64,000 nt of DNA from a virus, in the IMG/VR virus record IMGVR_UViG_3300025131_009739, positions 32,001 through 96,000 of that record; one strand, given 5' to 3'. Below the pieces are notes generated by a model that ran no database searches, had not been told where the DNA came from, and saw only the letters and a list, made by a program, of their open reading frames with translations. The translations under genes and the position numbers were made by a program. Below, one piece after another: positions 43-55,762 of the stretch (the first letter of the stretch is position 1; every line of letters starts with the position of its first letter).

Positions 43-3000
43 TTAATCATCAAATGCAGCTCCAGTATCGGTAATAATGAAATCAAGAGCAATGAATTCA
101 ATAGCTCTTGCAGGCTTCAAAAACACCTTAGCATATAGAATATTTCTATCAACCATCTCTGGCGTTGTCGTAGACTCATCAAGTACTACTTTGAAATCTG
201 TAAGACCAAACCCGGCTTTAATATCATTAAGGAAAGTTTCAACTTGAGAACTGAACTTATTCCAAGTTGAACGCACATTTTGCTCAAACAATGTCAATGC
301 CGCGATTCTAGAAATTTGCTTCTTCGTGTGAATCAACAATCGACGAACATTAATTCTGTCCAAAGCTGATGGAGTGACCTGAAGCGTTTTCTGGCCAAAT
401 ATTACAATTCCTTCCGCTGGGAATGAAGCAATTGGATTAACGTTTGCAGAATAAAGTCTATCTCTATCTTGAGAAGTAAGATGTTGACGAACACCTACAA
501 CATTAAGACCAGAAGCCCCCATAGTCAACCCGCCTCTTGTAAATCCAGCAGGAGCAAACCAAAGTGCTCTTTCTGCTTCACTGAAGGACATTACTCCAAG
601 AGCAACAACAGAAGGAGGCATCCAAAGAATGGCGTTTGAGAGAGAATCTCTAACTTGTACCCATGGATAGTAAGCGCAACCATAGCTGGTGTTCAAATTT
701 CTATTTTTCATGGTTGTTACAGCCTGATCAACGTTGCCGCGGCGAGCTGATTCAGCTGCGGTGCCTTCCGAATCGGCAACATGATCGTTTTTTATATCAA
801 TAATTGCCAGGGCATCCCCGCGATTCTCGCATGTAAGCATCAAATGTGCTGTAAGGGCAGAATCTGTAAGACCAGGCATGGTGGCCAAATTATATTCCAC
901 AGCCTCTGGGTCTTTAAGCGCGTCAATCGCACGATGAACTGTGTAAAATGCATAATTACTGGCTTCAGTTTTGCCCTCTAATAGCGAGTTTCTGAATGGT
1001 TCTTTCTCTGTAATATCTAAACCATCAAAACCATGAGCAAACACTGTAGTAAACCTATTGAATCGTTTAGTTTCAAGAAGGGTGCTTAAACTCCCGCTAC
1101 CATCGCTGTTGGCAGTAATCGATGTTCCAGCAGTACGACTGCCTGAAATATAATGCGCTCCGTGGCCGGTATCGCTACCACTTAAGTCTTCAAGGGTAAA
1201 CACCCACGCATCTTCAGTGTATGTTGAATCCGAATCAGGATTAAGAGCATTTGGTAGTAATCTAAGGACATCCTTAACGCTCGCATCATATTCAGTTGTA
1301 CCGCTTCTGTTTGTATCAGCTCCCCAATAAGCTTGTCGCGGAGAAGACAATCCGCCTTGAATTCCATGATGTCTCAAGGAAACTTTGGGGAAGAAAATCG
1401 AACCGGTGAACCACTTACCGGAACCTGCAACGCTGTGGGATCCGGTTGGGAACAATGCCCATTTCGCAGCTTGCGAGGCCTCAAAATGCCAGTCAATCGC
1501 ACCCGACATTAGAATGCCGTCACCTGCACCCTGAGCGAAAATCTTTGAGGCGTTGAAATGCGTAGTGGTGTCCATGGCTGCTTTGCGAATGTGGCCAAAT
1601 GCGCCACCCGGGGTGCCCCCGGCGCCCTGCTCGGCTGACCCGCTGAAAGACTTCACGCTTTTTGGTCTTTTATGGCCAAAAACTCCAACGGGGATAAACG
1701 TTGGATCCGTTGCGCCACGATCTACATCAACATTCATGTCGACATAAACAAATTTAGACATATTGGGATAGGCGCCAAATCTTTTCCATCTTCTTTCATC
1801 GTCATCCCAAGTTCGAAATTGATTACCAATTTTTCTTGCGACATAAGTGGGGGAATTAGGGTTCAAAGTACAATTTGAAAATATTTCAACAAATTGTGGC
1901 GCGTTATCAGTGTCGTCCAACTTTCGTATAGCAACTGTAAATGAACCATAAGGATCTTGCTTGTTTGTAGCAGGCTTAAGATCTTGAATTGAGACTTTAA
2001 GATTATTCTGGAGCCATTCTCCGCCGTCTAACCCTTTAAGTCTAAAAAGTTTTTGCATATTTTCAGGTTGATAAACGGCGTAGGCGCCCAGATCTTGTGA
2101 AATGAACCACCCGGTGCCGCCATGGGTAACTCCGTTAGAATCCACCATACCTATAAGGTTATTCCCCCATTTGTTGGCGCCGTCGTCTCTGCTATCTAAC
2201 CCAAGAATGATACCCTGGCTTGTGAGACCAGAAGCAAATAATTCCTCTCTATTTTGATCGAACGTTTCGCCCAGGAAATATCCTTTTGTGCTTGTTGTAA
2301 TGGTATCATTAACAAGTGTTGGGTTTGTGTTGAAAACGTTTCTAATATATCTTTCACTATTTCTATTAAAATTGAATGTAACTTTTTCTCCAACATCAGC
2401 CTGTAAAGCAGAACCGCTTCTGATAAGAGCTGTAAATTCATCGCTTCCATTTGAACCCGTGTTAATAAATATTGCCGACCCTGTGAATACAGTAGAGCCG
2501 GAATGTGGTACTGTTCCGGAAAGTTCAATACTCGTTTGATCGTTTAAATACCAAACTGCGGCCAACGAACCCGTTGAGTGACCAGAGGTGAGGCTAGTAT
2601 GTGGACTTGACCACGAATCAAAAAGAAATAATCCATAAGCACCGTTATTGGTGCCAACTGTTTTGGTCTTGGCATTTGCGCCCATGTCCCAACCGGCTTG
2701 ACCGGTGGAGTTTGCCGCGGCTTTAGAATTTTGAACACCAAGAAGCCTCACAACATTTAACGGTTGATTATTCCTCAACCAAGCTTGTGCAGCATATGCA
2801 GCATATGTAGGCGCAGTTTTGTTTCCTTCTCGCCAAACATCTCCTCCTTGGCCGCCAGGAACAGGCTCTCCAAAAATATCAACAAATTCTGAAAAAGAAT
2901 CTACCTGTACTGGCCTCATCGCGGGGCCGCGTTGCAATCGCCCAATAACAACTGGACCAATATCTCCGCCAACATTTGTACGTCGTGTATTATCAATCTC

Positions 3001-3048
3001 ATCAATAAAAACACCTGGTGAAACAAATTTAAATTTCTTAGCTGTCAT
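43..3048 (-). CDS. gp18: Contractile tail sheath protein (T4 gp18-like) with large insertion domains
   Basis: N-terminal FVSPGVFIDEID and C-terminal sheath core (YYPW, WFAPAGFTRG, NVNPIASFP, GQKTLQ, DRINVRRLL, KPARAIEFI); SD-like GAGGAG upstream. Confidence 0.96.
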   Translation of the reverse strand: MTAKKFKFVSPGVFIDEIDNTRRTNVGGDIGPVVIGRLQRGPAMRPVQVDSFSEFVDIFGEPVPGGQGGDVWREGNKTAPTYAAYAAQAWLRNNQPLNVVRLLGVQNSKAAANSTGQAGWDMGANAKTKTVGTNNGAYGLFLFDSWSSPHTSLTSGHSTGSLAAVWYLNDQTSIELSGTVPHSGSTVFTGSAIFINTGSNGSDEFTALIRSGSALQADVGEKVTFNFNRNSERYIRNVFNTNPTLVNDTITTSTKGYFLGETFDQNREELFASGLTSQGIILGLDSRDDGANKWGNNLIGMVDSNGVTHGGTGWFISQDLGAYAVYQPENMQKLFRLKGLDGGEWLQNNLKVSIQDLKPATNKQDPYGSFTVAIRKLDDTDNAPQFVEIFSNCTLNPNSPTYVARKIGNQFRTWDDDERRWKRFGAYPNMSKFVYVDMNVDVDRGATDPTFIPVGVFGHKRPKSVKSFSGSAEQGAGGTPGGAFGHIRKAAMDTTTHFNASKIFAQGAGDGILMSGAIDWHFEASQAAKWALFPTGSHSVAGSGKWFTGSIFFPKVSLRHHGIQGGLSSPRQAYWGADTNRSGTTEYDASVKDVLRLLPNALNPDSDSTYTEDAWVFTLEDLSGSDTGHGAHYISGSRTAGTSITANSDGSGSLSTLLETKRFNRFTTVFAHGFDGLDITEKEPFRNSLLEGKTEASNYAFYTVHRAIDALKDPEAVEYNLATMPGLTDSALTAHLMLTCENRGDALAIIDIKNDHVADSEGTAAESARRGNVDQAVTTMKNRNLNTSYGCAYYPWVQVRDSLSNAILWMPPSVVALGVMSFSEAERALWFAPAGFTRGGLTMGASGLNVVGVRQHLTSQDRDRLYSANVNPIASFPAEGIVIFGQKTLQVTPSALDRINVRRLLIHTKKQISRIAALTLFEQNVRSTWNKFSSQVETFLNDIKAGFGLTDFKVVLDESTTTPEMVDRNILYAKVFLKPARAIEFIALDFIITDTGAAFDD

Positions 3049-3093
3049 GTTTTACGTTCTCCTCTAGGACACAATTGTAAATGAATTCTTTAA

Positions 3094-3101
3094 TAAATAG
3101 T
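3094..3101 (-). promoter_or_regulatory. ACTATTTA motif, putative late promoter (sheath)
   Basis: Recurring intergenic motif upstream of structural genes. Confidence 0.55.
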
Positions 3102-3124
3102 TTGTGGAAGACTGAAAATCCATC

Positions 3125-3991
3125 TTAATCTCGATAAAATCCCCGCTTGTCAATATGCTCTGGGATATCTCCGACAATAACACGTTCTCTCGGTGTTTTA
3201 ACCTCAACTGCGTTCTCTCTTATAACTATTTTTGGTTGTTCTTGATTTTTCCCTTCACCGATAAGATACCCCAATACTTTAATCTCAACTTTAGTTTGAT
3301 ACATTCTTTCATCAGTCTCTAAAGAAGAGACATTATTTTCTTGAGAAAAGTCTTGTTGTATAAAACTTTCATATCTATGGTCGTCTTTTGTTAAAAGAAA
3401 ATAATTAATGCCACCAGTCTTTGTAATGAACGGAGTTATCATCTCGTTCATTTGTTGTTGGTATTCAGATCTTAGCGTAATAGCATATGTTATATCAATA
3501 TACACTGGTATTGGTATTGATATTGATTGATAAACAACCTTTTTGTTCTTTGTTGGAAAATTATTTTGCCCTCGCGATCTAAAAGAATCTGCGTTGGCAA
3601 AGTTTTTTGTTTTATCTTGATTTATCCTACGTGCAATTGTTATTGAGCCGCCTTTTTCGTCAGAAACTGGGGGAATATGCCCATAAAATATACCTTTTTT
3701 TGCCGGATCTTTAACTACTGAAGTTCTTTCGACGGTAATAACCGGCAATATAATAGAACCAGAAATACTCCTTATTTCTGATCTATTTTTTGTTTGGTGA
3801 ACTCTTTCTGATGCTACCCAAATTACTTCTGTTTTTTTCCAACCTTTGTTTGTTGTAGAATATATATTTAGATTGTTATCGATATGCTCATACATTGCCG
3901 TATCAATAGTTTCTAAAGTGGATGGTGTAATTATTCTTTCTTCAACTATGCTAGGGTCTGCAATGCCTGTATGTTTATGTCTAGTTGGCAT
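3125..3991 (-). CDS. Putative tail completion/terminator protein (gp15-like)
   Basis: Lies between neck genes and sheath; LPVITVERTS and PxYIDITYxI...QQMNEMI pattern; start placed at ATG 3991, which overlaps the upstream stop (TAATG). Confidence 0.6.
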   Translation of the reverse strand: MPTRHKHTGIADPSIVEERIITPSTLETIDTAMYEHIDNNLNIYSTTNKGWKKTEVIWVASERVHQTKNRSEIRSISGSIILPVITVERTSVVKDPAKKGIFYGHIPPVSDEKGGSITIARRINQDKTKNFANADSFRSRGQNNFPTKNKKVVYQSISIPIPVYIDITYAITLRSEYQQQMNEMITPFITKTGGINYFLLTKDDHRYESFIQQDFSQENNVSSLETDERMYQTKVEIKVLGYLIGEGKNQEQPKIVIRENAVEVKTPRERVIVGDIPEHIDKRGFYRD

Positions 3992-4479
3992 TAGAAAAGC
4001 CCCTCGCGAGCACGTATGCATTTAGCAGTTATTTCCATTCTATTGTTAATTTGGCCAAATAGTTGTTTTGGTTCGTTCAGGGAAACAATCTCATAATGAA
4101 TCTCGCCATACAGAACAAAATCTCCCTCTCTTACAAATAAATTTTGGTCTTCAGTTAATCTTCTCTTATGAAAATGAACGATTATCGAACTTTGTTTGTC
4201 AACACCAACATTGCTCATCCAAGCTGTTTCTAAATTTTCCCATTCTACTAAAGCGTAAACTCTTATTGGAGGCAAAAATGTCTTCTCAATCGCTTCTCCG
4301 TATAATGAATGAAAATTGGTGTGTTCTATGCTTATAGGATAATATAAAATTTGTTGGCCTATAACTCTTTCAACAAGCTCATCATTAACCTGCTTTACTA
4401 GATCGCGTTCCTTTTTTCCAACAAACAATGGTGGAGGAGGCTGAGTTGGTTGAGACCATTTATTTTTTTCGCTAGCCAT
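3991..4479 (-). CDS. gp14: Neck / head-closure protein (gp14-like)
   Basis: IGQQILYY...SLYGE...REGDFV pattern; directly follows the gp13-like gene. Confidence 0.7.
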   Translation of the reverse strand: MASEKNKWSQPTQPPPPLFVGKKERDLVKQVNDELVERVIGQQILYYPISIEHTNFHSLYGEAIEKTFLPPIRVYALVEWENLETAWMSNVGVDKQSSIIVHFHKRRLTEDQNLFVREGDFVLYGEIHYEIVSLNEPKQLFGQINNRMEITAKCIRAREGLF

Positions 4480-4488
4480 TTTTTAAAT

Positions 4489-5808: not shown

Positions 5809-5831
5809 TCATTGGATTCTCCTGTACACAC

Positions 5832-5839
5832 TAAATAGT
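5832..5839 (-). promoter_or_regulatory. ACTATTTA motif, putative late promoter (gp13)
   Basis: Sits just after the MCP terminator, about 24 nt before the gp13 ATG. Confidence 0.6.
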
Positions 5840-5881
5840 TTGACATGAAAGTAAAATCCTTGATATAGGACATTCTTATAT

Positions 5882-5910
5882 AAAAAAGCCCCGGGCCGAA
5901 ACCCGGGGCT
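5882..5910 (-). terminator. Rho-independent terminator after the major capsid gene
   Basis: Minus strand AGCCCCGGG-TTTCGG-CCCGGGGCT followed by a T run, about 30 nt after the MCP stop. Confidence 0.92.
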
Positions 5911-5942
5911 TAGATTAGTCTAACTTTTCGAAAAAAGCTATT

Positions 5943-7760: not shown

Positions 7761-7785
7761 AATTTTTCCTCCTTTTAAACTGTTT

Positions 7786-8787: not shown

Positions 8788-8817
8788 TTAATTAACTCCT
8801 AGAAAAATATGCATAAA

Positions 8818-8825
8818 TAAATAGT
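8818..8825 (-). promoter_or_regulatory. ACTATTTA motif, putative late promoter (scaffold-MCP)
   Basis: About 30 nt upstream of the scaffold ATG. Confidence 0.6.
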
Positions 8826-8906
8826 ATGTTTGAACAGTAAATGACATTTTATATTTTATTCCAATTTCTTAATTCTTTCTTATATATATTCAATATGCTG
8901 AAGATT

Positions 8907-10895: not shown

Positions 10896-10915
10896 ATTAG
10901 TACGTTCTCCTCAAT

Positions 10916-11377: not shown

Positions 11378-11405
11378 ATTTTTCTCCTACTCACAGCTCT
11401 TTTTA

Positions 11406-11618
11406 TTAATTAGTTTCTTGTTTAGCTTTCAACTTGTCTAAGACAGCTTTTCTTCTCTTTTTAAGCCTTCTCTTAACTTCAGATGGTTTTTCATAATACC
11501 TTCTTTCTCTAGCCTCTTCAATGATTGTTTCTTTCTTTACTTTCTTTGTGAATCTTTTTATTGCTCTCTCAATATTTTCGCCTTTTCGAATAACTGTCTC
11601 TACATTGATTGATTTCAT
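11406..11618 (-). CDS. rpsU: Phage-encoded 30S ribosomal protein bS21
   Basis: GENIERAIKRFTKKVKKETIIEEARERRYYEKPSEVKRR matches the bS21 family pattern; start at ATG 11618 gives 70 aa. Confidence 0.92.
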   Translation of the reverse strand: MKSINVETVIRKGENIERAIKRFTKKVKKETIIEEARERRYYEKPSEVKRRLKKRRKAVLDKLKAKQETN

Positions 11619-11623
11619 ATTTC

Positions 11624-12058: not shown

Positions 12059-12061
12059 TAC

Positions 12062-12391: not shown

Positions 12392-12392
12392 T

Positions 12393-13004: not shown

Positions 13005-13006
13005 AG

Positions 13007-19492: not shown

Positions 19493-22177
19493 TTAAAAGC
19501 TAGCGCCATAAAGCTTGATAACAAATTTACCAGCGTTATAAGTGCCACCAGAATTTGCACCAGTGCCATTAGCAAGATATACGTAATGCGAATTCGCAGA
19601 AAGAGCAGAACAGTCTAGTCCAGCTGCGCTCGAGCGCGTCATACCTACAGTCCAAGCTGCAGTGGCGGGAATGAGTGCAACTTCAGTTGTGCCGCTGTCG
19701 TATAAAGCATCTTCTGCCAAGGAGTTAGAGCTTGTAACCAAATCAATATCAACTGCGGCATTGTCATCTGCGCTGTCGGGCACTTCAATACAAGACATTT
19801 CTGCTTTGTAAATAACACCATTGACGGCCGTGGTAATTCTTGTTAAATAAGCTGCAGCTACATCATTTTCTCCAATAACATCTTTAAGGGTGCCTGAATC
19901 AACAATGCTCCCAGCGCCAATGTCAACTAATATAGTTGTTACAATTTCGCCATTAACTCTGGCTACGTGTAAAGTTGGCGAAACAGCGTCAAAGCCGCCG
20001 CCAGTAGCAGTTGCAGTTGCTGTATTCATCTTAATTTCAGGATAATCTGGTCCATTTTGCGTGTCTCTGCCGCCAAGAGTTAAAATAGATAGCATCGAAG
20101 GATCATTCGCAACTTGGAATGTGATTTCCCCGCATTCATCGCCGTTCACGATATCGGTTGATTTTACTTGTATCTTTGCATAAGTATCTGAACTTCCGGC
20201 GCCATCTGCACCAGTCCAGGTAATATTGCCCAGAACATCGTCGGCGGCGACTATGCGGTCATATGAACCGCCCCAACCGCGAGTTTTAGCAAAAGTTAAA
20301 TGTGGTCCAGTTGCATCGTTTGCACCGTTGCTGACATAAATTTCTGGCTTCTCTGTTGTTTCACCTGATGATATAACCCAGAAAGTGCTAGCTTTTGTAT
20401 CGAGAACTGGAGAACTATAATCAGTGTTGTACCCCAAAGTGAAGTCTGAGTCGTTCCCGAAGATAATATTTTTTGCGTCTGCAGTTGATATATCACCAGT
20501 AAACGAGGACTTGCCATCATCATCTATTGTAAGTCTTACTGTAGGCGCGCCGGCATCATCAGCGTCTGATGTGGCAAAAACAATTTTACCGGGGGAGGAA
20601 TCAGCATCTGACACGGCATCATTCGCGAATTCGATATAAGAAGACAGGGTGGCGCCGTCGTCGTCATCGACTCCATAAGCTTCAATACGGCCTAATATTT
20701 CACCAGCAGTAGTGTGATCGCCGCCTGTAAAAGTATTGATTGCGCCAGTACCAGCTTTTTGAAACTTGAGGACGCCGGCATGAGCTGCTGTGGCAGTAGC
20801 AGACCATGCGCTTAATTCAAGAGAAGGTTGTCCAGAGACTTTACTAATTTCAAGCGTAGAGCCCGGGGCTGGATTTCCAATACCAATACTACCATCGCTA
20901 CCTTGAAGGAAAAAAGCATGTGTATTGATATTAGACTCAACGCGAAAGTTACAGTCAATGCTCGAGTCGTTAACAGTAACTTCACAAGCTGAAGAATTTG
21001 CAACGTCTTCGCCACCAATGCTAAGAAGGTTCATAAGCTGCGCCGCTCCGGCAGTTCCGGCAGCCATGACATGAAATTTAAGTTGACCACCTTCGTCGTT
21101 GTCGGTCACATCACTAGAAGTTGCTATTATTTGAGCAAAGACTGCTTCCGCGTTGTTGCTTTTGTCGCCGGAGAACTTAATTGTCCCGAGAATGTCATCA
21201 TCGTCTTCTCCAGCGCCGTTATCTAGTATGAAGTGAAGAGTTGGCCCATGGGCCAAATCACCCACAGTTTTAAGAGTTAACACTGGTTCGGCGTGCGCGT
21301 CGGTTTCCTGAGTCAAGGTAAGGCCTGAATCATGGTCATGAGTCAAAATAATGTCGCTGTCGGCTCCAAACTTAATCGAGGCGCCATCAGTAGTAAGAGA
21401 CAAATCTCCAGCGCTGGAAAGAGCCATTTTTTCTGCTGCAGTTTCTGATGCAGCTGTTTTGAAACTTAGCTTAGCGGCGTTGTTGTCGGCAGCATGTGCA
21501 GCCGTCGCGACAGCTTCAATACCAGCACATACCAAAGTTGCGTCTCCGGCGCTGTCGTCGCCACCCTTGAAATCAATTGCTCCAATAACTTCTCCGTCGA
21601 GGATCTCGTCTTCTTCGGACTTAAGAGTTAATTTAATAGGAGTGTTATCTGCTGTGGCGGTATGCGTTAAAATAAGCCCTGTGTTATGTTCATGAGTTAA
21701 AGTTATTTCCTTGCTGGCGCCAAACCAGATTTCGACGGCATCTGCAGCGAGACCAAGATGGCCAGCACTTGTTAGTCGCATTTTTTCAGTTGCAGTCTCA
21801 GACTCTCCAGTCAAGAAGCTCAAATACGTTTCGTTGATTGTTGAAGTAAATTGCCTCTCCGCTACAGCCTCGATTCCTGCCGCCACCAGAATGGAGTCGC
21901 CTTCAGCGGATGCATCTGGCGCCTGGAAGTGTATGGCGCCAAGCTTCTCGCCGGCAGATTGAATGGTGTCGTCGGACTGGAATGTAAGAGTGGGATATCC
22001 GGCGGTTCCGCCATGTTTTTTCAAATTTAAACCATAGTCGTTTACGTGAACAAGTTTAATTTCTTTATCGGCACCAAACTTGATTTCAGATGAATCTGAT
22101 GCGAGAGCAATGTTGTCTTCGATATTGATGTCGGTAGAGGACACGGCGCCGATATTTGTTACATAGAGTGTACTCAT
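19493..22177 (-). CDS. Fibre protein with degenerate internal repeats
   Basis: Repeated blocks IxFGAxxEIxLxH...GExxGxIxF...AGIEAVA...LSFxT..SETAxEKM; distinct C-terminal domain. Confidence 0.7.
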   Translation of the reverse strand: MSTLYVTNIGAVSSTDINIEDNIALASDSSEIKFGADKEIKLVHVNDYGLNLKKHGGTAGYPTLTFQSDDTIQSAGEKLGAIHFQAPDASAEGDSILVAAGIEAVAERQFTSTINETYLSFLTGESETATEKMRLTSAGHLGLAADAVEIWFGASKEITLTHEHNTGLILTHTATADNTPIKLTLKSEEDEILDGEVIGAIDFKGGDDSAGDATLVCAGIEAVATAAHAADNNAAKLSFKTAASETAAEKMALSSAGDLSLTTDGASIKFGADSDIILTHDHDSGLTLTQETDAHAEPVLTLKTVGDLAHGPTLHFILDNGAGEDDDDILGTIKFSGDKSNNAEAVFAQIIATSSDVTDNDEGGQLKFHVMAAGTAGAAQLMNLLSIGGEDVANSSACEVTVNDSSIDCNFRVESNINTHAFFLQGSDGSIGIGNPAPGSTLEISKVSGQPSLELSAWSATATAAHAGVLKFQKAGTGAINTFTGGDHTTAGEILGRIEAYGVDDDDGATLSSYIEFANDAVSDADSSPGKIVFATSDADDAGAPTVRLTIDDDGKSSFTGDISTADAKNIIFGNDSDFTLGYNTDYSSPVLDTKASTFWVISSGETTEKPEIYVSNGANDATGPHLTFAKTRGWGGSYDRIVAADDVLGNITWTGADGAGSSDTYAKIQVKSTDIVNGDECGEITFQVANDPSMLSILTLGGRDTQNGPDYPEIKMNTATATATGGGFDAVSPTLHVARVNGEIVTTILVDIGAGSIVDSGTLKDVIGENDVAAAYLTRITTAVNGVIYKAEMSCIEVPDSADDNAAVDIDLVTSSNSLAEDALYDSGTTEVALIPATAAWTVGMTRSSAAGLDCSALSANSHYVYLANGTGANSGGTYNAGKFVIKLYGASF

Positions 22178-22190
22178 ATTTATCCTTCCT

Positions 22191-22238
22191 TAAATAGTAT
22201 TATATATAAATAGTATTATATATAAATAGTATTATATA
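22191..22238. repeat. Three exact tandem copies of the 16-bp unit TAAATAGTATTATATA
   Basis: Units at 22191, 22207 and 22223; each contains ACTATTTA on the minus strand. Confidence 0.92.
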
Positions 22239-22247
22239 TAAGTATCT

Positions 22248-25200
22248 TCACTGCCATTTATTCTGCCCCGGCGAATAGGGGTTATAACTAAAAGCGTCTA
22301 CAAAATCTATAATCTTTACATTGCAGTCATCGCTAATAGTCACCGTTTTTTCGCTTCCAACTGTAATTGGTCCAATTAAAACAGCATTGTGATTTGCTGG
22401 CAAAACCGCTGTATCTAGGGTTTGGCGATTAGCTATAATAGATCCTGCAACCGTACTCGCCTCCAGGATCCCATTGATATCAATTGTTGTGGCAGTTAGA
22501 TCGATTTCATCAGTTGCTCCAATAGAAAGCACAGTCGCGGAGGAACCATGAATAAATTGTGATGCATCGTTAAACTCAATCTTATTGGTAGAGGCCATTA
22601 ATAGCGAATCAGCAGAGCCATCAATTCTAAAGATCTCTGTTCCGCCGGTGTCTTTGACAATTAGATCATCTGTAGCTGACATATCGAACGTTGCATGCGT
22701 TGTACCGGCCTTCTTTAAGTTGACTAAATCTCCACCAGCATCAATGTGAACATCATCACTAGCATCAAGAATAATGTCGCCGCCACCTACAGCAATTGTC
22801 ATATCAGTCCCATCAGAAGAGATTTTGTCGGCCTGGCCAGTTCCATCGAATGTTAATGGAATGTTAGCAGGGATCTCAACAAATGCTGCAGCTGTCAATT
22901 TGATGTCTGCGCCAGAAGTAATGGTAAGATCCGTATTATCACCTTCAATCTTTTCACCAGTGCCAAAAGTTATACCTACGTCGGCAGGAACGACAACATC
23001 TTCAACTGCTGTCAAATTAATGTTATTACCAGAAATAGTGAGATCGGTTCCGTCGCCTTCAATTTTTTCACCGTCGTTGCCGAAAGTCAGACCGATATCA
23101 GCAGGAATGTTTATGTCTCCGCTAGAGCCAACAGTAATTGTCAGGTCGGTGCCGTCTGACTCAATCTTTTCGGTAGTTGCAAAAGTCAGGCCGACACCGG
23201 AAGGGATGTTAACGTCATCGACCGCCGTTAAATTAATGTTATTACCAGAAATCGTTAGATCAGTTCCATCACCTTCAATCTTCTCGCCGTCGTCTCCGAA
23301 CGTGAGGCCAATATCAGCAGGAATGTTTATGTCTCCGTTCGAGCCAACAGTAATTGTCAGATCAGTACCATCCGACTCAATCTTCTCGGTAGTTGCAAAA
23401 GTCAAGCCAACACCTGAAGGAATGTTAACGTCCTCTACCGCCGTTAAATTAATGTTATTACCAGAAATCGTTAGATCAGTTCCATCACCTTCAATCTTCT
23501 CGCCGTCATTACCGAAGGTCAGACCGATATCGGCAGGAATGTTTATATCACCGCTAGCACCAACACTGATATTAATATCAGTTCCGTCAGACTCAATCTT
23601 CTCGTTTCCTGATCCATCCAGGACAAGTCCAACATTTACTGGGATGATAACATCATTTGTGGCGGTGAGGTTTAAATGCCTGCCTGACCCAATTGTCATA
23701 TCAGTACCATCAGATGAAATATGTTCGCCGCCTTGATCATAGAAATAAAGTTTTCTGTCATCTGCAATTCTTATGACTTCATTGCCATCATATTGTTTGA
23801 ATACAAGATCGTCACCATCAACTTTTAACTGAAAGAAGATCTCAAAGTTGGTGGTATCCATATCAAGCGCAAGCTGGGCTACGCCACCATCCATGAATGT
23901 CACATCACCGGTCCAGGAATCGATATCAATACCATAAAGAGCATCAAGTGTTATTTTATTGCCTGATGCTATTATAAGACCATTAGAGCCATCGCCGACA
24001 ATGTGCTCGCCTGAATCTTCGCCCCACTCAAGCTTGGAGGTGGCGCTATTAATTCTAATATCTCCCCCCGCACTAAGTATCAAATCTGTTCCGGTACCCT
24101 GAATCCATTCGTCCCCATCATCCTTAAATTTTAACTTAAGATCATCAGTAAATCGTACAACCTCAGTACCATCGTATTGCTTAATTACTAAATCTTTACC
24201 ATCAACCCCCTGCTTAATGACTCCCTCTCCAGAATTCTGATGGGAAAAATCTATTTGGCCGGCCGCACCTCCGAATTTTATTGTAACATTGTCACCATCA
24301 GCATCAAGGATGATATCGTACAAGGAGTCTAAAATGATGTTTCCGGCCATGTCGCCTGACCCATGGGCTGTTTGTAGCGTGATGCCCTTCAATCCGTCCA
24401 ATGTCAGATCCCCATTATTAGCATCGATTATGAGATCCCCCGCAGAACATGACCATGTTGCGCTTTCTGCAGAAGTAATAGTAACTGGAGAGCCAGCAAT
24501 AGTAGCCCCTTCGTCGCCGTCATGAGTAATTGTAAAATCGGCGTCGACGCCTAAAGAAATAAGAGAACTATCACTTGAAAGAGTCAGGTCATCACCAACA
24601 TTGATATCGCCATCTGAACTATAAATAACTGCTTTGCTATTCACAACAGTGCCGCCGGAAACGCCATCAAGCAAATTCAGTTCTTCGGGAGTGGAAGAAA
24701 CCGCTGTGGTACTAGCAGCAGCTAAGACAGGTAGACAATATGTACCGGCATCCATGGCTGGTAAATTAATTGTTGCATCAGCTGTGGGGTCAATGATTGC
24801 CAATGTCGTCTCGTGGGCGTTGGCAGTGGCTCCTTCGAAGACAAAAGCGTTTGTCACATCAATCGTCGTTTGGTTTATAGATGTTGTAGTGCCGTTGACA
24901 GTCAAATCGCCTGTTACCGTAAGATTGTCATTAACAGTGGTCTCAGAAGTGGTGTGGCCAATAGAGATTGGCACGTTAACCGTTGCAGTGCCAATAGTGA
25001 TACCGTTAGTAGTATTTGAACAATCAATATTGAAGGTGCTGGTAGAATCTAACGAAATAATACTTCCATCAGCAACCAAATTCGCCGTAATTTCGGTGTC
25101 ATTTGCGGTAGTGAATGTGCCGTCGACAACAAGATTATCACTAATATGAACGTTTCCATCGGTAATATCCAATGCGTTTTGACCATTTGTTCCAACAATT

Positions 25201-25523
25201 GTTAGTTTTTCTTCAGATGCGTCCCATAAAAAACTATCGCCAGATGTGGCACTATAAAAGGTGACGTCATGACCTGAACCATCGGACCCGACAACCATAT
25301 TATCGTTAACAGTAAAGGTCGTACCATCATATGTAAGATTAGCCTCGCCATCGAGTTCAGTTGTGGCGTTGCCTATCGTGACTAGTCTGCTTTCTGTCTT
25401 GTTATTAAGTGCGGAGACGGGCAGGACGGCATATCTATCTAAATAATTCTGTACGGATTTCCATAGTCTTTGTATTGACCAATTTCCAATTGTCCCTTTC
25501 GTGCCATGGCTTTTACTGGCCAT
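22248..25523 (-). CDS. Long fibre protein with 72-aa tandem repeats
   Basis: Repeated EKIEGDGTDLTISGNNINLTAV.DVNIPSGVGLTFATTEKIESDGTDLTITVG; Asp/Gly/Thr-rich beta repeats. Confidence 0.75.
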   Translation of the reverse strand: MASKSHGTKGTIGNWSIQRLWKSVQNYLDRYAVLPVSALNNKTESRLVTIGNATTELDGEANLTYDGTTFTVNDNMVVGSDGSGHDVTFYSATSGDSFLWDASEEKLTIVGTNGQNALDITDGNVHISDNLVVDGTFTTANDTEITANLVADGSIISLDSTSTFNIDCSNTTNGITIGTATVNVPISIGHTTSETTVNDNLTVTGDLTVNGTTTSINQTTIDVTNAFVFEGATANAHETTLAIIDPTADATINLPAMDAGTYCLPVLAAASTTAVSSTPEELNLLDGVSGGTVVNSKAVIYSSDGDINVGDDLTLSSDSSLISLGVDADFTITHDGDEGATIAGSPVTITSAESATWSCSAGDLIIDANNGDLTLDGLKGITLQTAHGSGDMAGNIILDSLYDIILDADGDNVTIKFGGAAGQIDFSHQNSGEGVIKQGVDGKDLVIKQYDGTEVVRFTDDLKLKFKDDGDEWIQGTGTDLILSAGGDIRINSATSKLEWGEDSGEHIVGDGSNGLIIASGNKITLDALYGIDIDSWTGDVTFMDGGVAQLALDMDTTNFEIFFQLKVDGDDLVFKQYDGNEVIRIADDRKLYFYDQGGEHISSDGTDMTIGSGRHLNLTATNDVIIPVNVGLVLDGSGNEKIESDGTDINISVGASGDINIPADIGLTFGNDGEKIEGDGTDLTISGNNINLTAVEDVNIPSGVGLTFATTEKIESDGTDLTITVGSNGDINIPADIGLTFGDDGEKIEGDGTDLTISGNNINLTAVDDVNIPSGVGLTFATTEKIESDGTDLTITVGSSGDINIPADIGLTFGNDGEKIEGDGTDLTISGNNINLTAVEDVVVPADVGITFGTGEKIEGDNTDLTITSGADIKLTAAAFVEIPANIPLTFDGTGQADKISSDGTDMTIAVGGGDIILDASDDVHIDAGGDLVNLKKAGTTHATFDMSATDDLIVKDTGGTEIFRIDGSADSLLMASTNKIEFNDASQFIHGSSATVLSIGATDEIDLTATTIDINGILEASTVAGSIIANRQTLDTAVLPANHNAVLIGPITVGSEKTVTISDDCNVKIIDFVDAFSYNPYSPGQNKWQ
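22900..23620 (-). repeat. 216-bp period tandem repeat (about 3 units) in the fibre gene
   Basis: Equivalent positions at 23041, 23257 and 23473; copies differ mostly at synonymous sites. Confidence 0.85.
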
Positions 25524-43945: not shown

Positions 43946-44000
43946 TTTGTATAAATTCCAACCTTATAATAATTACTCATATTTAATAAAATATTCTTCA

Positions 44001-47000: not shown

Positions 47001-50000
47001 GATAGCATTAGAAGCAGTCATAGATGCATATGGGTTTGAAAATAACTCTCCACATAGAGTGCCGGATTCAGCAGAAGCATCTAATGGCCACATACTTAAA
47101 CAAGGTGGAATCATTTCTAGACCATTTTGAAAATCATGTTCAGAGGGTCCGATTCCTTTGTTGCGGTCGATCTGGCCGTATTTAAATATATAACCTGTCG
47201 TATCGTCATTCCACATACTTTCTCTAATTGTATTACCCATTGAATTTAAAGCAAGAGCATCTGTCCTTAATCTATGTTCAGGTCTAGTTCTCCAGAACGT
47301 TCTATAATCTCTTCGATCATAACCCTGATGAGTTAGTCCCGAAGATTCTGTGTAATGTTGTCTTCCACGAATTTTGCCTAAATAAGCATTTTCTTCTTTC
47401 GGAAAGACAATTTCTCTATAATTCAGATTAAGCAAATCAAATGATTTTTCTTGTTGAAAGACTGGATTAATTTCATTTGTTATTTCATCATATATGACTT
47501 GATCGGGATCATTGATAATTCCTAATTTTTGATCCAACTCTCCTTGACCAATTGGGAAGTAATTCATATTATTGCCAAGTGTATGTCTAAAAGTAAAGAC
47601 ATTATTGGCCTTTCCACCTCTTGCAAGAACTATACGTTGTTGTTCTACGTCGTCCACAGAAATATCGAATAAAGTATGCTCGATTGGTTTATATTTGTTT
47701 GTAACAGGCGTAATAGTTTCTTTTCTTACTGGAGACTTGGCGCCGACTTTTTTCAGCTCTTGGAGAATGTTATCTGTGTAGCCATTAGTGCCATATCGTA
47801 ATTCGGTTTGTGCGTCGGCCGGCGTGAAAAGTTTCTCGAGTTTGGTGGGGCTACGCTCGGAAGCAACCGGGCCGATTGAAAAATCAAGTAAATTCTTTTT
47901 CTTATGATATCGCGCAACAGGGTGTTCGCCTGTTCTAATTTGTTTCCAAGATGGGTAATGATATGGTCCGTTGCGGTGAAGCATAAGAGCGTTGAAGGCT
48001 TCTGGGTCTCGCCTTGGATTGTGCGCAAGGCCGGCGGTGTTCGCTTCAGAAGCTCCAATCGGATCATAATTTGTGACAAAGCCTCTCCCATGAGATGTAG
48101 CGTTGTCTGTTCCATTTATATAAGTGGGTGACTCGTGGTAGGCTGTCCAACCCAAATACGCTCCATGTGGGTGCTGCAAGCTATCATTATTACCGGGGGC
48201 ACCTGTATCGTTGGGCCACCCAAGAGTATTTGTGGATGATGATATTGGTTCATATATAATTGTGTTTAACCCTACGAAATCAGTCGGATGAAAGCCACCA
48301 ATATCCCCTTGAATAGCCTCGGCAAAAGGAACGCCCCAAGTTCGGACGGCGCCGGCGTTGTACCACGCAACCCCAAAATCACTTGCACTAACAAATACAA
48401 TATCTGTTGAAGCGTTCCAAGCGTTGTATGCATTATGTTCTTCTGATCCGCTTCTCATATAAGCAGGCTTTTGATATCCAAGAACTGTAAAGTCAGCTTT
48501 GGGCCTAGCCGGATCGGCTGGTGTTACGCCGAGAGAAAGAGGCTCAGTCGTAACACCAGTAACGTGATGCACAGAAGCTGTAATCCAAGCATATTGCAAA
48601 TCGCTTCTTGGAATAACGCGGGTGACATACCAATTATCATAAGATGAAGCAGTTCCAGCAAACTTAGGAGCCACAATATGTCCGCTGCTACTGAAAACTA
48701 TTTTTGCTCTTCGATTTCTATGCACTTTATGATATGATGCACTTGGTTCTTTTAAAGAGCTGTCATATCCGCCGGTGCCGGCATGTCTTGTTAACAACGT
48801 TTGCAAAGGCTGCCTTACACTAAGATTTCTATTGTTTAAACTATTGTATACTGAAAATTCTTCCGCAACAATATCTAAGAAGCCTCTAGACATAACTTCT
48901 GGGCCGCCAGGAGCGGAAAACTTTTCTACAAACACAGAAGCATGTCTTCCTCTATCTGGCAATGCAAAGTCGTATACTCCTGAAACAAGTGTTGATACAA
49001 CTGATCCTGATATAGCTCCTTTTGTTTCGGCAAAATATCTAGGATTGGTAGAGCGACCGGATGTTTGTACAACTTCATAATTTTTAGTGTAATTGCCAAT
49101 AACGGTGGAGCCGGTTGTAGTATGACCAATAGTTTGCTGTATGTTTTTGATATTAACCGGTCTTTTTGCATACCCATCGCGGGCTATCCAAGATCTGGCT
49201 GCGCTCCAACCTGGAGCGTCTTGATCAGCTACAGCTTGGACTACATGATCTACTGGTACGAGCTTAAGTTCTGTTGCATATCCTATTTCGCTATAAGCTG
49301 GTAGAACCACACTCCATGCTTCTTCTCTTCTACTAGGAGATGCCGTTCCGAATGCTCCTGTTGTCGTAAAGAAAACATGTCTATGTGGCATGCCACCAAC
49401 ATATTTCTCTGTAAATGGCCCTTGCATAGGGGTCTCTTTGCAGGTTCCATATGCGTCAACATGAATGTTTGTCGGTCCGCCAACTCCGGAAATAGCAGTA
49501 ACAGAACCTGTTGTAAACGAAGAACTAAAGAGACTAAATGGAGCATAAATTTCTCCTTTGTTTTGCTCATCATACGGCAAATAAACATTAAATGCTTGCC
49601 TAGTTTTTTTATCAAGATCAAGAAGATCTGAGCATGCAGGATTTACAAAATCACTTGATTTTATATGTATATAATTATCTGATCCTGGAGTTAACAAGCT
49701 TTTATAGAAATCTAATCTTTTACTGGGAGCAAAATTAATTCCACCATGAAGTTCAACATCCACTTTAGCTGAGAATTTATAAGGTTTTGTTAATTTTCTA
49801 TATACATAAGGATTGGATCGATAGGTAGGACCAGAACTTGAAACAATTGTTGTGGCAATTGTTCTAATTGATTCTTTGCTGCTGTTAAGTCCAGCGTCTG
49901 AAGTACTACCTAGGTGGGTTTGTCCATCTCTTCCGAGACGATCTTTCCACCAGAGACAATTGATGTTTTCGGTTGCGCTCGATGGATAGGTAATGAAGGG

Positions 50001-53000
50001 ACTGTTTTGAACCATTCCACCGACGGCCCCGTTAGCTAATACAATGGTGCGCCCATGAGGGCCGGCCTGGTCGACCACTAAAGTTATTTTGGTATCGGAA
50101 GACCCCAGGATCGCCGTGATTCCTTTAAGTCCTGTGGTTCCTCCGGTGATTTCGCTTCCATATTTGATTGAGTCGCCATCGAATCCTGGAGCATCTGTGC
50201 CATTAATGGCTGCAATCAAATATGTGGTTGCAACAGCGTCGTTGCCGGCGCCGGCGATTCGAATCGCGTTCGCGGGGGGGTCGCCGCCTGGAACACTATT
50301 ATAAACTACGATGTGGACCTTATTACCAGAAGATGCCCCATCGCCCCCGCCTGCAGCGTCAGATATCGTAATATAAAAGGAGTCACCATGAACAACTCCA
50401 GCCCCGGGGTATGCTGGTTGGCTCGAGCCAAGATCCAAAACGTCAAACGCAGTAGCGTTACTGTCGGCTGCAAGGTAAAATTCTATGGGCGCATGTCCCT
50501 GTTTCCATGGATACAATAATTCGTTAATAGCAAGAATTTGCCCAGTTGGTATATCATGTTTCATTTCAAGTGTCGGGAACTTACTCCAATACTTGTTTCT
50601 CTCTAAGACATGGCTTTCAACCATATTTCTAATGGATTCGGAAGTATCAGATGAAATTGGGAAAAACTGTTCAATTATTTTATCAATTGAAGAATCTAAC
50701 CATTTATAAAATTCCACATATCTGTCCAAATCAGAAACACTTTCGACCCTTTCAAAAAATAGTTGCCTTAACTTTTCCATCCTTTTGTATGATTGACGAT
50801 ATCTGTTAACTGGGTCTCCGATAAGAGAATTAAAATCTTTAATTGTAGCAAACATTTTCAGCATTTCTTCTGATATTGTTTGATACATGCTTTTTTCAAC
50901 AGCAATAAAATGTGTTATCGGTCTTGTTTCTCTTGTGAAGTTTATATCATCTCTATTTCTGATCTCGATCATGTCGCTGCTAGCTACTGATTCTGGCAAT
51001 CTCTGTCTAGCAGATGGCAAATAATTTTTATCAACAACTTTTGCATTACTAACAAGAAAGCCATAGCCGATGCCAGTATGTTGTGCATTCAGAATATTGC
51101 CAACAGGACCGTATCTTCCTGTAAGCGCTGTTGATCCAGAAGAAATATCTTCTACAACAAATTCACCTCTTGCATCTGAACCAGTGACTCTGTCAAAGTC
51201 CCAATCTAGCGCCAATGTTTCGATTCTAGGAATGTAACAAAGGCTGGCAGTTGGAGCATTAAACAAATAAGCATAATCATAAGGATGAAGAACACCAGCA
51301 TTACCGGCATCCAGGGCATGAACTTTAATAACTTCGTCTGGCAAATAATCGAGCCAATATCTTACAGAAGATATCTTAACGTCTGTATATTCTTCTAGTG
51401 CTCCTGTGAAATTTGTTCTCAAGGCGCCAGCATATACTCTTTTTGGTGAACCTATCCAATGATTAACACGAGATGCGGGTACTGAATCATAAGGTATGCC
51501 TATAGATTTAGTTATATAAAACTCATTTCTTATGGCATTATTTGAAGCATTTACGCCGCAAAATTCAATAGTCCCGGAACCATGGATATAAGCATTGTTA
51601 GTGCCGCTCACCCGGGTGGCCATTGGATATGTCGATGGTCGAACTCTAACTGCAAAATTCCATTTTTCATTTTCATAAACATCATAAAAAACAGAAGAAG
51701 TTATATTAATTGCCATTATACTAGATGTTAATTTAAAATATGCGTTTGTAGATAAAATATCGTTTGTATCTTTTACAGCGTAGACTCTTAGATCGCCGGT
51801 ATCAGATACTGGCCACGACGCTTCAACTTGTGCCGATTGAGCAGAATCAGGAATTGAAACTGCGCCCTTAGTTCCAAACAAAGAAGAAGTAAGCGAAGGA
51901 GCTAATATAAATTGTCCTGGTTTTTCAACAGTTTCTCTACGAGGAAATATGATTTCAGCTTCTAGTGTTCTTGCAGAGCCGCTTAAAAATTCTTCACTCC
52001 CAGAAATGAAAGATACTGAATTGGAATTACTGCTGGCTGTTGCTTGATAAACTACAGCAGTATTATGATCCGGTTTGTGAAAATCTATAAAATTCTTTTT
52101 TTGAACTGTATAATTGTAGCTGTCTTTAAGTTCATATGTTATATTGTTGGCATATACATTTATCTTAATTAATTCATCATCTATACCAAAACACCTAATT
52201 GCGTTTCTAAATGATTTTTCAGTACCCTTTGATTTGTATATATAAACTAAATTATTATACAAATTTTGATAAATTAAATTTTTTGTATCATAAAGATCAT
52301 CTTCAAAAAGTTTTTTTTCATCTCTCGCGGAAAGTTTAGAAATTATATCAGCATCAAGAAATATTTCTGGCGTGGTTAGGCCAGCAGATTCTAGCAATCG
52401 ATTTGCGAAAGGAAGAGGTTTGTATTCACCACTACCAGTAGGTCCGGAGGCTGTATGGAGAAAAGAAGAGGGATACGACACATAAGACTGGTTTTTAATT
52501 GATGGCAAAGCCTTGATCTGCTGGGCTAAAGTATCAAAATAACTCGCCATAATTTGTGACAATTTTAATAAATTTGAACCAACATATCTATCTTCAGATG
52601 TTATCCATTCAGGAAAACTATTATAAATTGAAGCGTTGTTTGTATAATCAAAGTTTTTACCTAGTTTAGAATAAGTATCTAAAGTGCTAGTAACGTTTGT
52701 GTGGAACGAATAAAGAATAGGATCTTCAAATTCGCGGGTGGAGGCGCTAGCAGAAACTATTGCTGAACCTGTGTTACGAGAAGTCGATAGATACCCTTCC
52801 CAAGATCCTGAAGATATTCTTCCGGAATAATCTAACACTTTAGAATCAAAGCTAGATGTAACTGTTATGCCCTCATTAAATTTATAATATACGCCTAGTT
52901 GAGTATTTGAATCATCTGTATTTGTGCCGCCATGAACCTGAGTAAACCAATGACGTCCAACGGCTTTTGGTGATCTTTCTGCTTTCCAAAATCTAAATTC

Positions 53001-54101: not shown

Positions 54102-54103
54102 GG

Positions 54104-55762
54104 TTATTCAACTCTAAATTTAAATATTTCTGGTTGTTCGCGATAAGCACCATTTGTGTAATATGCAAACTTTATTCCGTAGGTGTAATCGGGTTCTAAC
54201 ATGTTCATTTTTAAATCAAAATAATTTCCATTTGAATCGTAAGAAAGCTGAGTATAGGGCATATTACTTGGAGGAGGGAAAGTTATAGTACTACTTCCAG
54301 TTCCATATGTGATTATATTTAAGTCATCAGTTACTCTAAAGATTTTATAATATGCTTTTTCAATAACGACAGGGTCAATTGTCGTAACAACTGTTGTATA
54401 GACATTTGGATTCCAATACCTGTCGCGAACGAAAACTCTGAAGCGGGCTTCTTCATCTCTAAAATATGTTGATTTAAGATTAGTAATTTTAGTAACATAT
54501 GATGGATTTGGGTTAAAAGTTTCTGCAGATGATGAAAATTGTTTCGTTTTTATAGAGCCGGTGTAATATACTGTAGCATCGTCGATATCTACACCAGCAG
54601 AACCACTAAACCATCGATCATAAATAATACTAGCGCTTGTGTTGAGTGCGAAACTTGCTGAATATATCCCAGTTGATACATATCCTCCTGTTACAGCTTG
54701 AGAATTTGCCGGAGGATCATCACCAAGAGTGCTATGTTGTCTCAAATTATACGGGGCATCCGTATTCATTAGTTCTCCATGGGAAGCTGACGTGTAAAAC
54801 TGCACAAATATAACGGGATGGGCCTGGCCTACATCTGGTATATTTCTAAGCTGTCCGCGAACATAATTATATAAATATATTGTATTCAAATTCCCAGATG
54901 CATTTACAAGAGAACTGCTTACATAACAACTGCCCCTATCATCTTTAATTGTCGAATCCCACCTTGCTTCGATGCAAGGCCTTTTAAAGAAATATTCTGA
55001 TGTTCTAGAAAAGAATTTTTTGGTATAATAAGAATTTTTTGTTCCCGCAGCATTGTGTAGTACAGAACCAGTATCGGCTCCTGTTGAACTAGAAAAATAT
55101 CCCTCTTGGCTGGAGGTAAAATATACTCCTATCCCATAATTATGTTTGCCGTCGTTATTGTGGTTTGCTCCGCCAACAAGCCAATGCTCCACCAAACCAG
55201 TTATATCTACGTCTAAATCTTCATCTCCATTAGGAAAACTAGCAGTATAATGTACATGACCAGAAGCAGTATGATATGAGCCTCCTTTATTTGCCCATAG
55301 ATCTAGACCGGAAGATGCGGTACTGGCATTAATCCAATTGGTACCAACAAAATCTCTAGTTATATCGGTATAGCCTTCCATATCAAGACCAGTGCCTTCA
55401 TCCCATGATTGGGAAATAGGCAATATAGTTAAAATTGCACTTTGTGGAAGAGTAAATGCATGCTTTGCATTGAACATTCTTGCATAAAAACTTACGCTAC
55501 CACTTGCTGGAATTTCGCCATTATCTCGAGAAGAAGAAATAGTAGAAACAGGAAATTTAATTAATATTCTTGACAACTCAACAGAGCCAGAAGATGCGTC
55601 ACTATATTGGCCGCCGCCGCCTTGAGCGTAAATTGAAAATGTTTCTAAAACATCAGAAGCCCCCATATTAGAGCCGGTGCCTCTGTGTGCCTCTGAAAGG
55701 CCTGGGCCAAAAGCATTTGTTATAGTAGTATCTGCGTCCGCTGTGAATCTTCTAATGCCCAT
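54104..55762 (-). CDS. Virion structural protein with DNRLRE-like N-terminal domain
   Basis: ADADTTI...SRILIKF...SQSWDEGTG...DVDITGLVEHW pattern; located between gp6 and the giant gene. Confidence 0.55.
   Translation of the reverse strand: MGIRRFTADADTTITNAFGPGLSEAHRGTGSNMGASDVLETFSIYAQGGGGQYSDASSGSVELSRILIKFPVSTISSSRDNGEIPASGSVSFYARMFNAKHAFTLPQSAILTILPISQSWDEGTGLDMEGYTDITRDFVGTNWINASTASSGLDLWANKGGSYHTASGHVHYTASFPNGDEDLDVDITGLVEHWLVGGANHNNDGKHNYGIGVYFTSSQEGYFSSSTGADTGSVLHNAAGTKNSYYTKKFFSRTSEYFFKRPCIEARWDSTIKDDRGSCYVSSSLVNASGNLNTIYLYNYVRGQLRNIPDVGQAHPVIFVQFYTSASHGELMNTDAPYNLRQHSTLGDDPPANSQAVTGGYVSTGIYSASFALNTSASIIYDRWFSGSAGVDIDDATVYYTGSIKTKQFSSSAETFNPNPSYVTKITNLKSTYFRDEEARFRVFVRDRYWNPNVYTTVVTTIDPVVIEKAYYKIFRVTDDLNIITYGTGSSTITFPPPSNMPYTQLSYDSNGNYFDLKMNMLEPDYTYGIKFAYYTNGAYREQPEIFKFRVE

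Follow-up and report, generated by a model that had tools for sequence, protein, structure and literature searches.

Glycan coats that bacteriophages make for their own particles have been described in mycobacteriophages, where soluble glycosyltransferases encoded by the phage are proposed to modify its structural proteins, so that capsid and tail become coated; as summarised in PMC12619734, the phages concerned are siphoviruses of actinobacteria and the glycans sit at the C-termini of capsid and tail-tube subunits. The present analysis concerns a 64,000-nucleotide stretch of DNA (hereafter the window), comprising bases 32001-96000 of the 165,872-bp record IMGVR_UViG_3300025131_009739 of an uncultured marine T4-like phage (called G000), in which a serine-containing tripeptide, [S/T]-[G/A/S]-S, recurs densely in a subset of virion proteins. 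This tripeptide, referred to below as the tag, is a specific, ordered motif under selection and not an effect of composition, and it is a candidate acceptor sequon for glycosylation of the virion by the phage itself. To our knowledge, phage-made glycan coats have so far been documented only for mycobacteriophages, and we know of no acceptor motif there.

Several other systems provide points of comparison. In bacteria, GtfA and GtfB compose a cytoplasmic system of family GT4 in which two adjacent GT-B proteins, of which GtfB is the non-catalytic partner, modify serine in the S-A-S-like repeats of serine-rich-repeat adhesins (O-GlcNAcylation). The general O-glycosylation system of the Bacteroidota uses the sequon D-(S/T)-(A/I/L/V/M/T), with transfer in the periplasm. 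In flagellin O-glycosylation by Maf proteins no sequon is known (PMC11339370, describing Clostridium botulinum Maf), while Maf1 of Aeromonas caviae prefers S-x-S doublets with apolar flanks, the middle residue being Leu or Ile (PMC9290775). Lastly, chloroviruses and giant viruses carry their own sugar-nucleotide pathways and cytoplasmic transferases, and glycosylate their capsids independently of the host (PMC9614988, PMC5408694).

From the window, in which nearly all genes share one strand, 34 open reading frames (ORFs) were extracted, and [ST][GAS]S was counted in each against 2000 composition-preserving shuffles of the whole protein. Nine virion proteins (Table 1) together hold 117 tags where 30.4 are expected (z=15), and the excess is restricted to this set, the remaining 170 ORFs of the 166-kb G000 genome containing 65 tags against 77.5 expected. 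A preceding sequence-only reading of the window, made without database searches, had counted the tag by hand in individual proteins; the recount reproduced all of these figures, and the excess withstood comparison with the shuffles. Equally accurate was its description of terminase, portal, scaffold, the SbcC-like protein and gp6 as poor in the tag (all lie at or under expectation), as was its observation that the tag is scarce in Gly/Thr/Ser-rich fibres (Table 1). Its argument against simple composition bias is confirmed by the shuffles, by this fibre depletion and by permuted tripeptides. Specifically, four of five permuted classes give z values of only 2-4 in the enriched set as against 15 for the tag, while the fifth, S[GAS][ST], which has SGS, SAS and SSS in common with the tag, gives z=9.4. 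When all 8000 tripeptides are ranked, TGS (31 observed, 9.8 expected), SGS (29, 10.7) and SAS (23, 9.7) stand at the top among those with non-trivial counts. Shuffles confined to segments of 10, 20 or 40 residues predict 36-39 tags (39 for the shortest segments) rather than the 117 observed; taken with the permuted tripeptides, they lead to rejection of a compositional or low-complexity origin of the tag. Codons at the tag sites match background usage and no nine-base word dominates among them; the signal therefore acts at the level of protein, and a DNA word is ruled out as its origin.

The major capsid protein encoded in the window belongs to the T4 gp23 family, and its closest relatives are those of Flavobacterium phage immuto, Microcystis phage Mel-JY01, Rhodothermus phage RM378 and two uncultured huge phages, a grouping that corresponds to 'Far-T4', a deep branch of the T4-like phages. 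By CheckV the G000 record is 48% complete and, since relatives rated 100% complete measure 186-193 kb, a modest part of the genome is probably missing. Five clade phages with relatedness down to about 30% identity were compared, namely G000, its 185.6-kb relative IMGVR_UViG_3300003690_003472 (G001, about 48% identity to G000), and the three cultured members immuto, Mel-JY01 and RM378. T4, Vibrio phage phiKT1024, Synechococcus phage Sf-FS3, Xanthomonas phage XacN1, Stenotrophomonas phage RAS14, LR756511 and LR756508 served as control phages.

Pooling of the enriched proteins from the five clade phages reveals that the actual unit is wider than the tripeptide first noticed, and spans about five residues: hydrophobic-[S/T]-[G>A>S]-S-hydrophobic. 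Before G-S, solely Ser (5.2-fold) and Thr (6.0-fold) are favoured; after [ST]-G, Ser is favoured 5.5-fold and Thr just 1.5-fold; and at the middle position preference runs from G (5.5-fold) through A (3.6-fold) to S (1.9-fold), with charged residues at 0.3-0.5 of expectation. Hydrophobic residues are raised 1.4-1.8-fold at position -1, where charged residues fall to 0.15-0.32 of expectation, and position +1 is hydrophobic or Ala, and uncharged. These hydrophobic flanks are seen separately in each of the five phages; where the tripeptide occurs in control phages or in non-enriched proteins its neighbours are small residues instead. The motif is thus ordered, independent of composition and, as its conservation demonstrates (see below), selected as a unit. 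The conserved context ends at -2 to +1, with nothing further out, and homology among the enriched proteins is undetectable except between the paralogous proteins of 401 and 399 amino acids (aa). Because the proteins are unrelated and lack a longer shared context, the tag sites are not copies of one repeated domain, a source that is hereby ruled out, and a common trans-acting cause is called for. Among orthologs of the nine enriched proteins in G001, [ST]-A-T never occurs (0 versus 7.3 expected), while [ST]-A-S (33 versus 9.5) and [ST]-G-T (24 versus 8.0) are enriched.

The tag is a property of the clade. Since the proteins were selected in G000, their G001 orthologs provide an unbiased replicate, and these hold 102 tags against 33.9 expected (p=3e-21). 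The tag, its flanking context and the set of proteins that bear it are shared by immuto, Mel-JY01 and RM378. Tag frequency in the enriched head, neck, sheath and baseplate proteins is 3-5 times chance across the clade, and the five-residue form counted genome-wide reaches 3.2-4.6 times expectation in G000, G001, immuto, Mel-JY01 and RM378, as compared with 0.8-1.6 in all seven control phages. A 2.6-5.3-fold excess is kept in every one of 36 homologs of the 552-aa protein from IMG/VR (41-88% identity), and 80 additional loci around homologs of the 399-aa protein average 1.97-fold, 67 of them exceeding 1.5. Hosts of the tag-positive phages belong to the Bacteroidota, Rhodothermota and Cyanobacteria, and a reader of the tag encoded by the phage is favoured because the trait extends across these three bacterial phyla; of the phage- or host-encoded enzyme envisaged by the sequence-only reading, the former alternative is thereby strengthened and the latter rendered unlikely. 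Recurrent tripeptides of other kinds were also encountered. In phiKT1024 (OM249648.1), HPE occurs 27 times against 2.9 expected and YPE, PEE and PEY are likewise raised, which suggests a different recurrent motif of that phage. In Mel-JY01 (PP395634.1), SGT, TSG and GTS are each elevated about fourfold (82-96 versus 23), indicating (Ser-Gly-Thr)n-type repeats in some proteins, and FDW, WDG and DWD are elevated as well (16 versus about 2).

Within the enriched proteins, the distribution of tags supports, at the level of domains, a predicted location on those parts of the head, neck, sheath and baseplate that face outward. In the tail sheath, Pfam Phage_sheath_1 and Phage_sheath_1C match residues 705-992 and the conserved C-terminal part aligns to residues 358-653 of T4 gp18. 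In contractile sheaths the conserved part builds the inner layer and added domains face outward. As had been noticed from the sequence, the tags of the G000 sheath are confined to the N-terminal 650 or so residues and the conserved core is free of them, all 11 lying before residue 652. Across the five clade phages, the outer part holds 46 tags against 16.7 expected (p=3e-9) and the core 1 against 2.9, and in 16 further sheath homologs, which are kin and not independent, the corresponding figures are 149 versus 62 and 0 versus 11.8. Similarly, about six tags had been placed in the insertion of the major capsid protein, and six of its seven indeed fall at residues 161-309, within an insertion domain of approximately residues 150-350; in the five phages this domain contains 18 tags (8.5 expected) and the HK97-like core a single one (3.2 expected). 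In immuto, every enriched protein belongs to a virion module, two annotated tail spikes among them.

The gp13-like adaptor has a G001 ortholog with 5 tags against 1.9 expected. The 153-aa head-module protein matches nothing in Pfam or PHROGs, and for the enriched proteins lacking an assigned role searches of Pfam, PHROGs and the ESM Atlas yielded only 'hypothetical viral protein'. The 401-aa protein has counterparts in G001, immuto, Mel-JY01 and RM378 but none in the T4-like controls, and at least 598 relatives of the 399-aa protein are found in IMG/VR. In the 3366-aa protein the tags are clustered, with free stretches at residues of about 1000-1400, 2000-2200 and 3200-3366, the first two of which may be buried or internal parts; by eye only, its residues 220-380 or so have the look of a laminin-G or concanavalin-A-like lectin domain. 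No solved structure was found for any clade member.

Table 1. Tag-bearing virion proteins of the window and two contrasting fibre genes; positions are those of the window, and tags are given as observed versus expected from shuffles.
Feature	Position	Strand	Tags	Remarks
Tail sheath, 1001 aa	43..3048	-	11 vs 3.5	all at residues 159-651
Neck / head-tail adaptor, gp13-like, PHROG Ad2, 439 aa	4489..5808	-	6 vs 1.7	phrog_211 E=6e-13
Major capsid protein, gp23 family, 605 aa	5943..7760	-	7 vs 2.2	Pfam Gp23 E=3e-73
Head-module protein, 153 aa	10916..11377	-	4 vs 0.9	G001 ortholog 3 vs 0.7
Two Gly/Thr/Ser-rich fibre genes (contrast)	19493..25523	-	2 vs 9.4	Poisson P=0.005
Clade-specific tail or baseplate-module protein, 401 aa	32333..33538	-	9 vs 2.4	paralog of the 399-aa protein
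Clade-specific tail or baseplate-module protein, 399 aa	33542..34741	-	10 vs 2.4	
Protein of 367 aa	42842..43945	-	3 vs 0.7	p=0.04, marginal; G001 ortholog 2 vs 0.4
Giant baseplate-module protein, 3366 aa	44001..54101	-	49 vs 13.2	G001 ortholog 42 vs 12.7
Protein of 552 aa, beside gp6-like baseplate wedge gene	54104..55762	-	18 vs 3.5	most enriched

Comparison of G000 with G001 shows purifying selection on the tag alongside a continuing gain of new sites. The tag class is kept at 46% of aligned sites, as compared with 12-38% for eight composition-matched control classes, and the serine at position 3 is conserved at 0.55 versus 0.42 for other serines. The glycine of the motif, at 0.51, is no more conserved than other glycines (0.58), which disfavours a turn that requires glycine. 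At the same time, about half of the sites in each lineage are specific to it. Within the family of the 552-aa protein some sites are fixed, one varies only inside the class (TSS, SAS, SSS, TAS), and many are exchanged as a unit, for example KAT to SAS, DAY to SAS and NAR to TGS. Likewise, an alignment of 15 sheath sequences contains 52 tag-bearing columns of which one is conserved, and parsimony assigns 46 gains, a number inflated somewhat by alignment error in the variable regions. Constant density combined with wandering positions is, by analogy, the behaviour of sequons in viral glycan shields and not that of elements determined by a fold.

Turning to candidate enzymes, the sequence-only reading saw no glycosyltransferase in the window, which was upheld; five or six candidate transferases are located in the remaining genome, about 17-37 kb past the window end. 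These form part of a co-oriented rare-sugar cluster of about 26 kb at genome positions 105960-132594 (window-equivalent 73960-100594), starting some 10 kb beyond the window. The cluster encodes two NeuB-family synthases (one with a cupin fusion), a PseF-like cytidylyltransferase, two DegT aminotransferases, GDP-mannose-dehydratase-type and other epimerases or dehydratases, short-chain dehydrogenases, methyltransferases, a radical-SAM/SPASM enzyme, a sugar C-methyltransferase, a thiamine-pyrophosphate enzyme, an Fe-S assembly protein and an FKBP-type isomerase; NCBIfam scores all lie under the equivalog cut-offs, so that the sugar products cannot be named. Its transferases, assigned by Pfam, comprise an MptE/DUF115 (Maf-like) protein, a GT2, a GT1-like protein and two adjacent GT4 proteins of 430 and 421 aa. 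No convincing membrane segment was seen in any of these, nor was a flippase- or polymerase-like protein (Wzx/Wzy) found; the phage thus encodes both sugar-nucleotide pathways and soluble transferases. As regards DNA glycosylation as a target of the cluster, neither a thymidylate-synthase-family gene (dCMP hydroxymethylase) nor a Tet/JBP gene was found, a weak negative in that the Tet/JBP search had no positive control and the record may be incomplete.

The GT4 pair stands out from the other transferases. Pfam PF00534 (Glycos_transf_1) matches both proteins, which qualify as members of family GT4, and both possess the E-x7-E signature at residue 288, conserved in orthologs. A sequence search of the PDB returned only generic GT4 enzymes for the 421-aa protein and no match for the 430-aa protein or the Maf-like protein. 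A search of 50,697 phage records places homologs that span the whole 421-aa GT4 in immuto, Mel-JY01, LR756508 and RM378 only, with weak partial matches (about 23% identity) in two unrelated cyanophages. Gene order is conserved, running from a PD-(D/E)XK nuclease through the two GT4 genes into variable sugar genes. The 421-aa GT4 gene occurs in 5 of 5, and then in 15 of 17, large related contigs, including 6 of 6 relatives at least 90% complete, and its identity of 55-85% is above that of the structural proteins. A phylogenetic profile requiring presence in G001, immuto and Mel-JY01 and absence from three T4-like controls is matched by 13 genes, the sole enzymes among which are the GT4 pair and a polymerase-like gene. 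Judged by gene content, the GT4 pair are clade-specific core genes. The MptE/DUF115-like gene, which in G000 adjoins NeuB and the PseF-like gene, is accessory (1 of 5 related contigs), and its assignment is marginal: Pfam MptE-like scores 37.0 bits against a cut-off of 34.6 over residues 196-240 only (about 45), and NCBIfam gives no match. In G001 its place beside NeuB and the cytidylyltransferase is taken by a GT29-like gene (sialyltransferase family; L042:7246-8040, plus strand). With the GT4 pair steady and the Maf-like and GT29-like genes swapped, the cluster has a constant head and a variable tail. Several irregular GT4 genes were also recorded: a GT4-GT2 fusion of 658 aa in G001, a 421-aa GT4 ortholog split into two ORFs in the Mel-JY01 record, and, in the 174-kb IMG/VR record G014 (49767-50972), an ortholog with one in-frame TAG, which could reflect sequencing error, pseudogene formation or stop-codon recoding.

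Set against the described systems, the locus displays both similarities and differences. As in the mycobacteriophages (PMC12619734), there are candidate soluble phage glycosyltransferases for a putative coat on the virion; unlike those phages, G000 has a short internal candidate sequon spread over the outer domains of many proteins of a T4-like myovirus, accompanied by a nonulosonic-acid and rare-sugar cluster. Resemblance to the Maf systems lies in a proposed cytoplasmic modification of exposed Ser/Thr on a self-assembling structural protein and in an apolar-flanked S-x-S, yet the middle residue is Gly or Ala here and Leu or Ile in Aeromonas (PMC9290775). NeuB and a CMP-sugar cytidylyltransferase adjoin the DUF115/MptE-like gene in G000, but that gene is accessory and its family match marginal. 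Chloroviruses and giant viruses likewise carry sugar-nucleotide pathways and transferases; they are, however, eukaryotic viruses with atypical N-linked and other glycans and a double-jelly-roll capsid, unrelated in sequence and sequon (PMC9614988, PMC5408694). Like GtfA and GtfB, the phage pair consists of two adjacent GT4 proteins; it differs in that both keep E-x7-E, which rules out a GtfA/GtfB-like pair with an inactive partner, in that neither is closer to GtfA than to other GT4s, and in that the phage tags are isolated in folded domains whereas the adhesin targets are long repeats. The D-(S/T)-x sequon of the Bacteroidota is ruled out, acidic residues being depleted about tenfold at position -1; phage virion proteins assemble in the cytoplasm, not the periplasm where that system transfers its sugars, and the trait is found in phages of Cyanobacteria and Rhodothermus as well.

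For a tag recurring in unrelated proteins, a modifying enzyme offers the simplest shared explanation. With a probability of about one half, the tag would mark virion proteins as acceptors for O-glycosylation by phage enzymes, a reaction placed in the cytoplasm and either ahead of assembly or concurrent with it. This reading is favoured because a common external cause is needed, density is constant, the sites lie in outer domains, the trait is restricted to one clade, and the GT4 pair are the sole clade-specific enzymes besides a polymerase-like gene. In the proposed mechanism one GT4 would add the first sugar to the Ser or Thr of the tag and the second would extend it, after which the products of variable downstream genes (in G000, two NeuB, the PseF-like cytidylyltransferase, the Maf/DUF115-like protein, the GT2 and the GT1-like protein) would make and attach strain-specific outer sugars. 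Glycans would as a result cover the insertion domains of the capsid, the neck, the outer sheath and the baseplate, leaving the receptor-binding fibres of G000 bare. More tentatively, an abundant, world-wide marine and freshwater clade of T4-like phages, with at least 598 relatives in IMG/VR and more than 7000 GT4 homologs, could coat its virions in the cytoplasm, with a core soluble GT4 pair reading the five-residue sequon and strain-swapped sugar genes conferring a glycan 'serotype'. The acceptor sequon suggested by the sequence-only reading is therefore retained as regards a specific, ordered and selected motif on predicted outward-facing domains, and revised as regards its length of three residues.

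Several observations weigh against this interpretation. Firstly, although the five GT4-positive genomes are enriched and the six GT4-negative ones are not, the positives form one clade, so that the association amounts effectively to one evolutionary event; no clade member lacking GT4 was seen among 17 large contigs, save two fragments about 57% complete. Secondly, LR756508 has a GT4 homolog (30-35% identity) but no enrichment of the tag. (This 484-kb uncultured phage, LR756508.1, also encodes two tandem sheath paralogs of about 830 aa at 203-208 kb.) Thirdly, the GT4s resemble generic enzymes of the family that act on small molecules, lipids or polysaccharides, and the sugar cluster could serve another target. 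Fourthly, the tag is not the virion-wide feature that it had been taken for: several large virion-module proteins lack enrichment (8 tags versus 13.2 expected), and the fibres of G000 avoid it whereas immuto has many tags in its annotated tail spikes. Lastly, the hydrophobic flanks may place sites in partly buried beta-strands.

The main rival to glycosylation, albeit an unlikely one, is that the tag stays unmodified and plays a structural part in the beta-rich accessory domains, whether as a recurrent element of strand edges or turns or as a set of surface hydroxyls, and that the glycosyltransferases serve something else. Hydrophobic residues on both sides fit a beta-strand, and in the poor AlphaFold2 models of the 552-aa protein (24-sequence alignment, predicted local distance difference test score, pLDDT, of 52) and the sheath (15 sequences, pLDDT 45) the sites lie in or beside strands. 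Tight turns often contain a Gly with Ser or Thr after it, the sites occupy variable, clade-specific domains, and the GT4 association is phylogenetically a single event. A fold-determined element is, however, poorly reconciled with unrelated proteins that have no longer context in common, with a motif glycine that is not extra conserved and can be replaced by Ala or Ser, or with a need for both hydroxyl residues flanking the middle and a strong preference for Ser over Thr at position 3. Nor would it account for positions that wander while density stays at about threefold, for beta-rich virion proteins of seven other phages that have no such excess, or for fibres that avoid the tag.

Improbable, though it draws equally on the arguments for a trans-acting reader, is the proposal that this reader is not a glycosyltransferase, the tag being instead a site of another post-translational modification or of docking by an assembly chaperone or by a protein that decorates or cements the particle. 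Such a factor might come from several clade-specific genes of no known function; on the other hand, the clade-specific genes include no kinase, acyltransferase or other modifier, only the GT4 pair and the polymerase-like gene, and a docking site would be expected to be fixed whereas the observed positions wander. Least probable by far is an artefactual excess produced by composition, low-complexity sequence or a word at the DNA level, a reading for which the moderate Ser, Thr and Gly richness of the enriched proteins and the slight elevation of permuted control tripeptides in virion modules (ratio 1.34) could be cited, but which the permutation, codon and segment-shuffle tests, together with depletion rather than excess in the Ser/Thr/Gly-rich fibres, have already effectively refuted.

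If glycosylation at the tag is real, it would supply phage virion glycosylation with its first defined sequon and cytoplasmic O-glycosylation with a new short tag. Glycosylation would then be a feature of a large phage clade that is ecologically abundant, with a bearing on protease resistance, sticking and grazing, host recognition and evasion of defence, and the hypervariable sugar clusters of its members would gain a target and a purpose. In addition, a soluble two-enzyme system with a five-residue tag would be useful for cytoplasmic glycoengineering. A literature search returned neither a description of this motif nor any report on how the virions of RM378, immuto or Mel-JY01 are composed chemically. 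Finally, among the few plus-strand genes is one for a trypsin-like serine peptidase at genome positions 136021-136815; the N-terminus of its product is strongly hydrophobic (signal or anchor), and the protein contains 3 tags against 0.7 expected.

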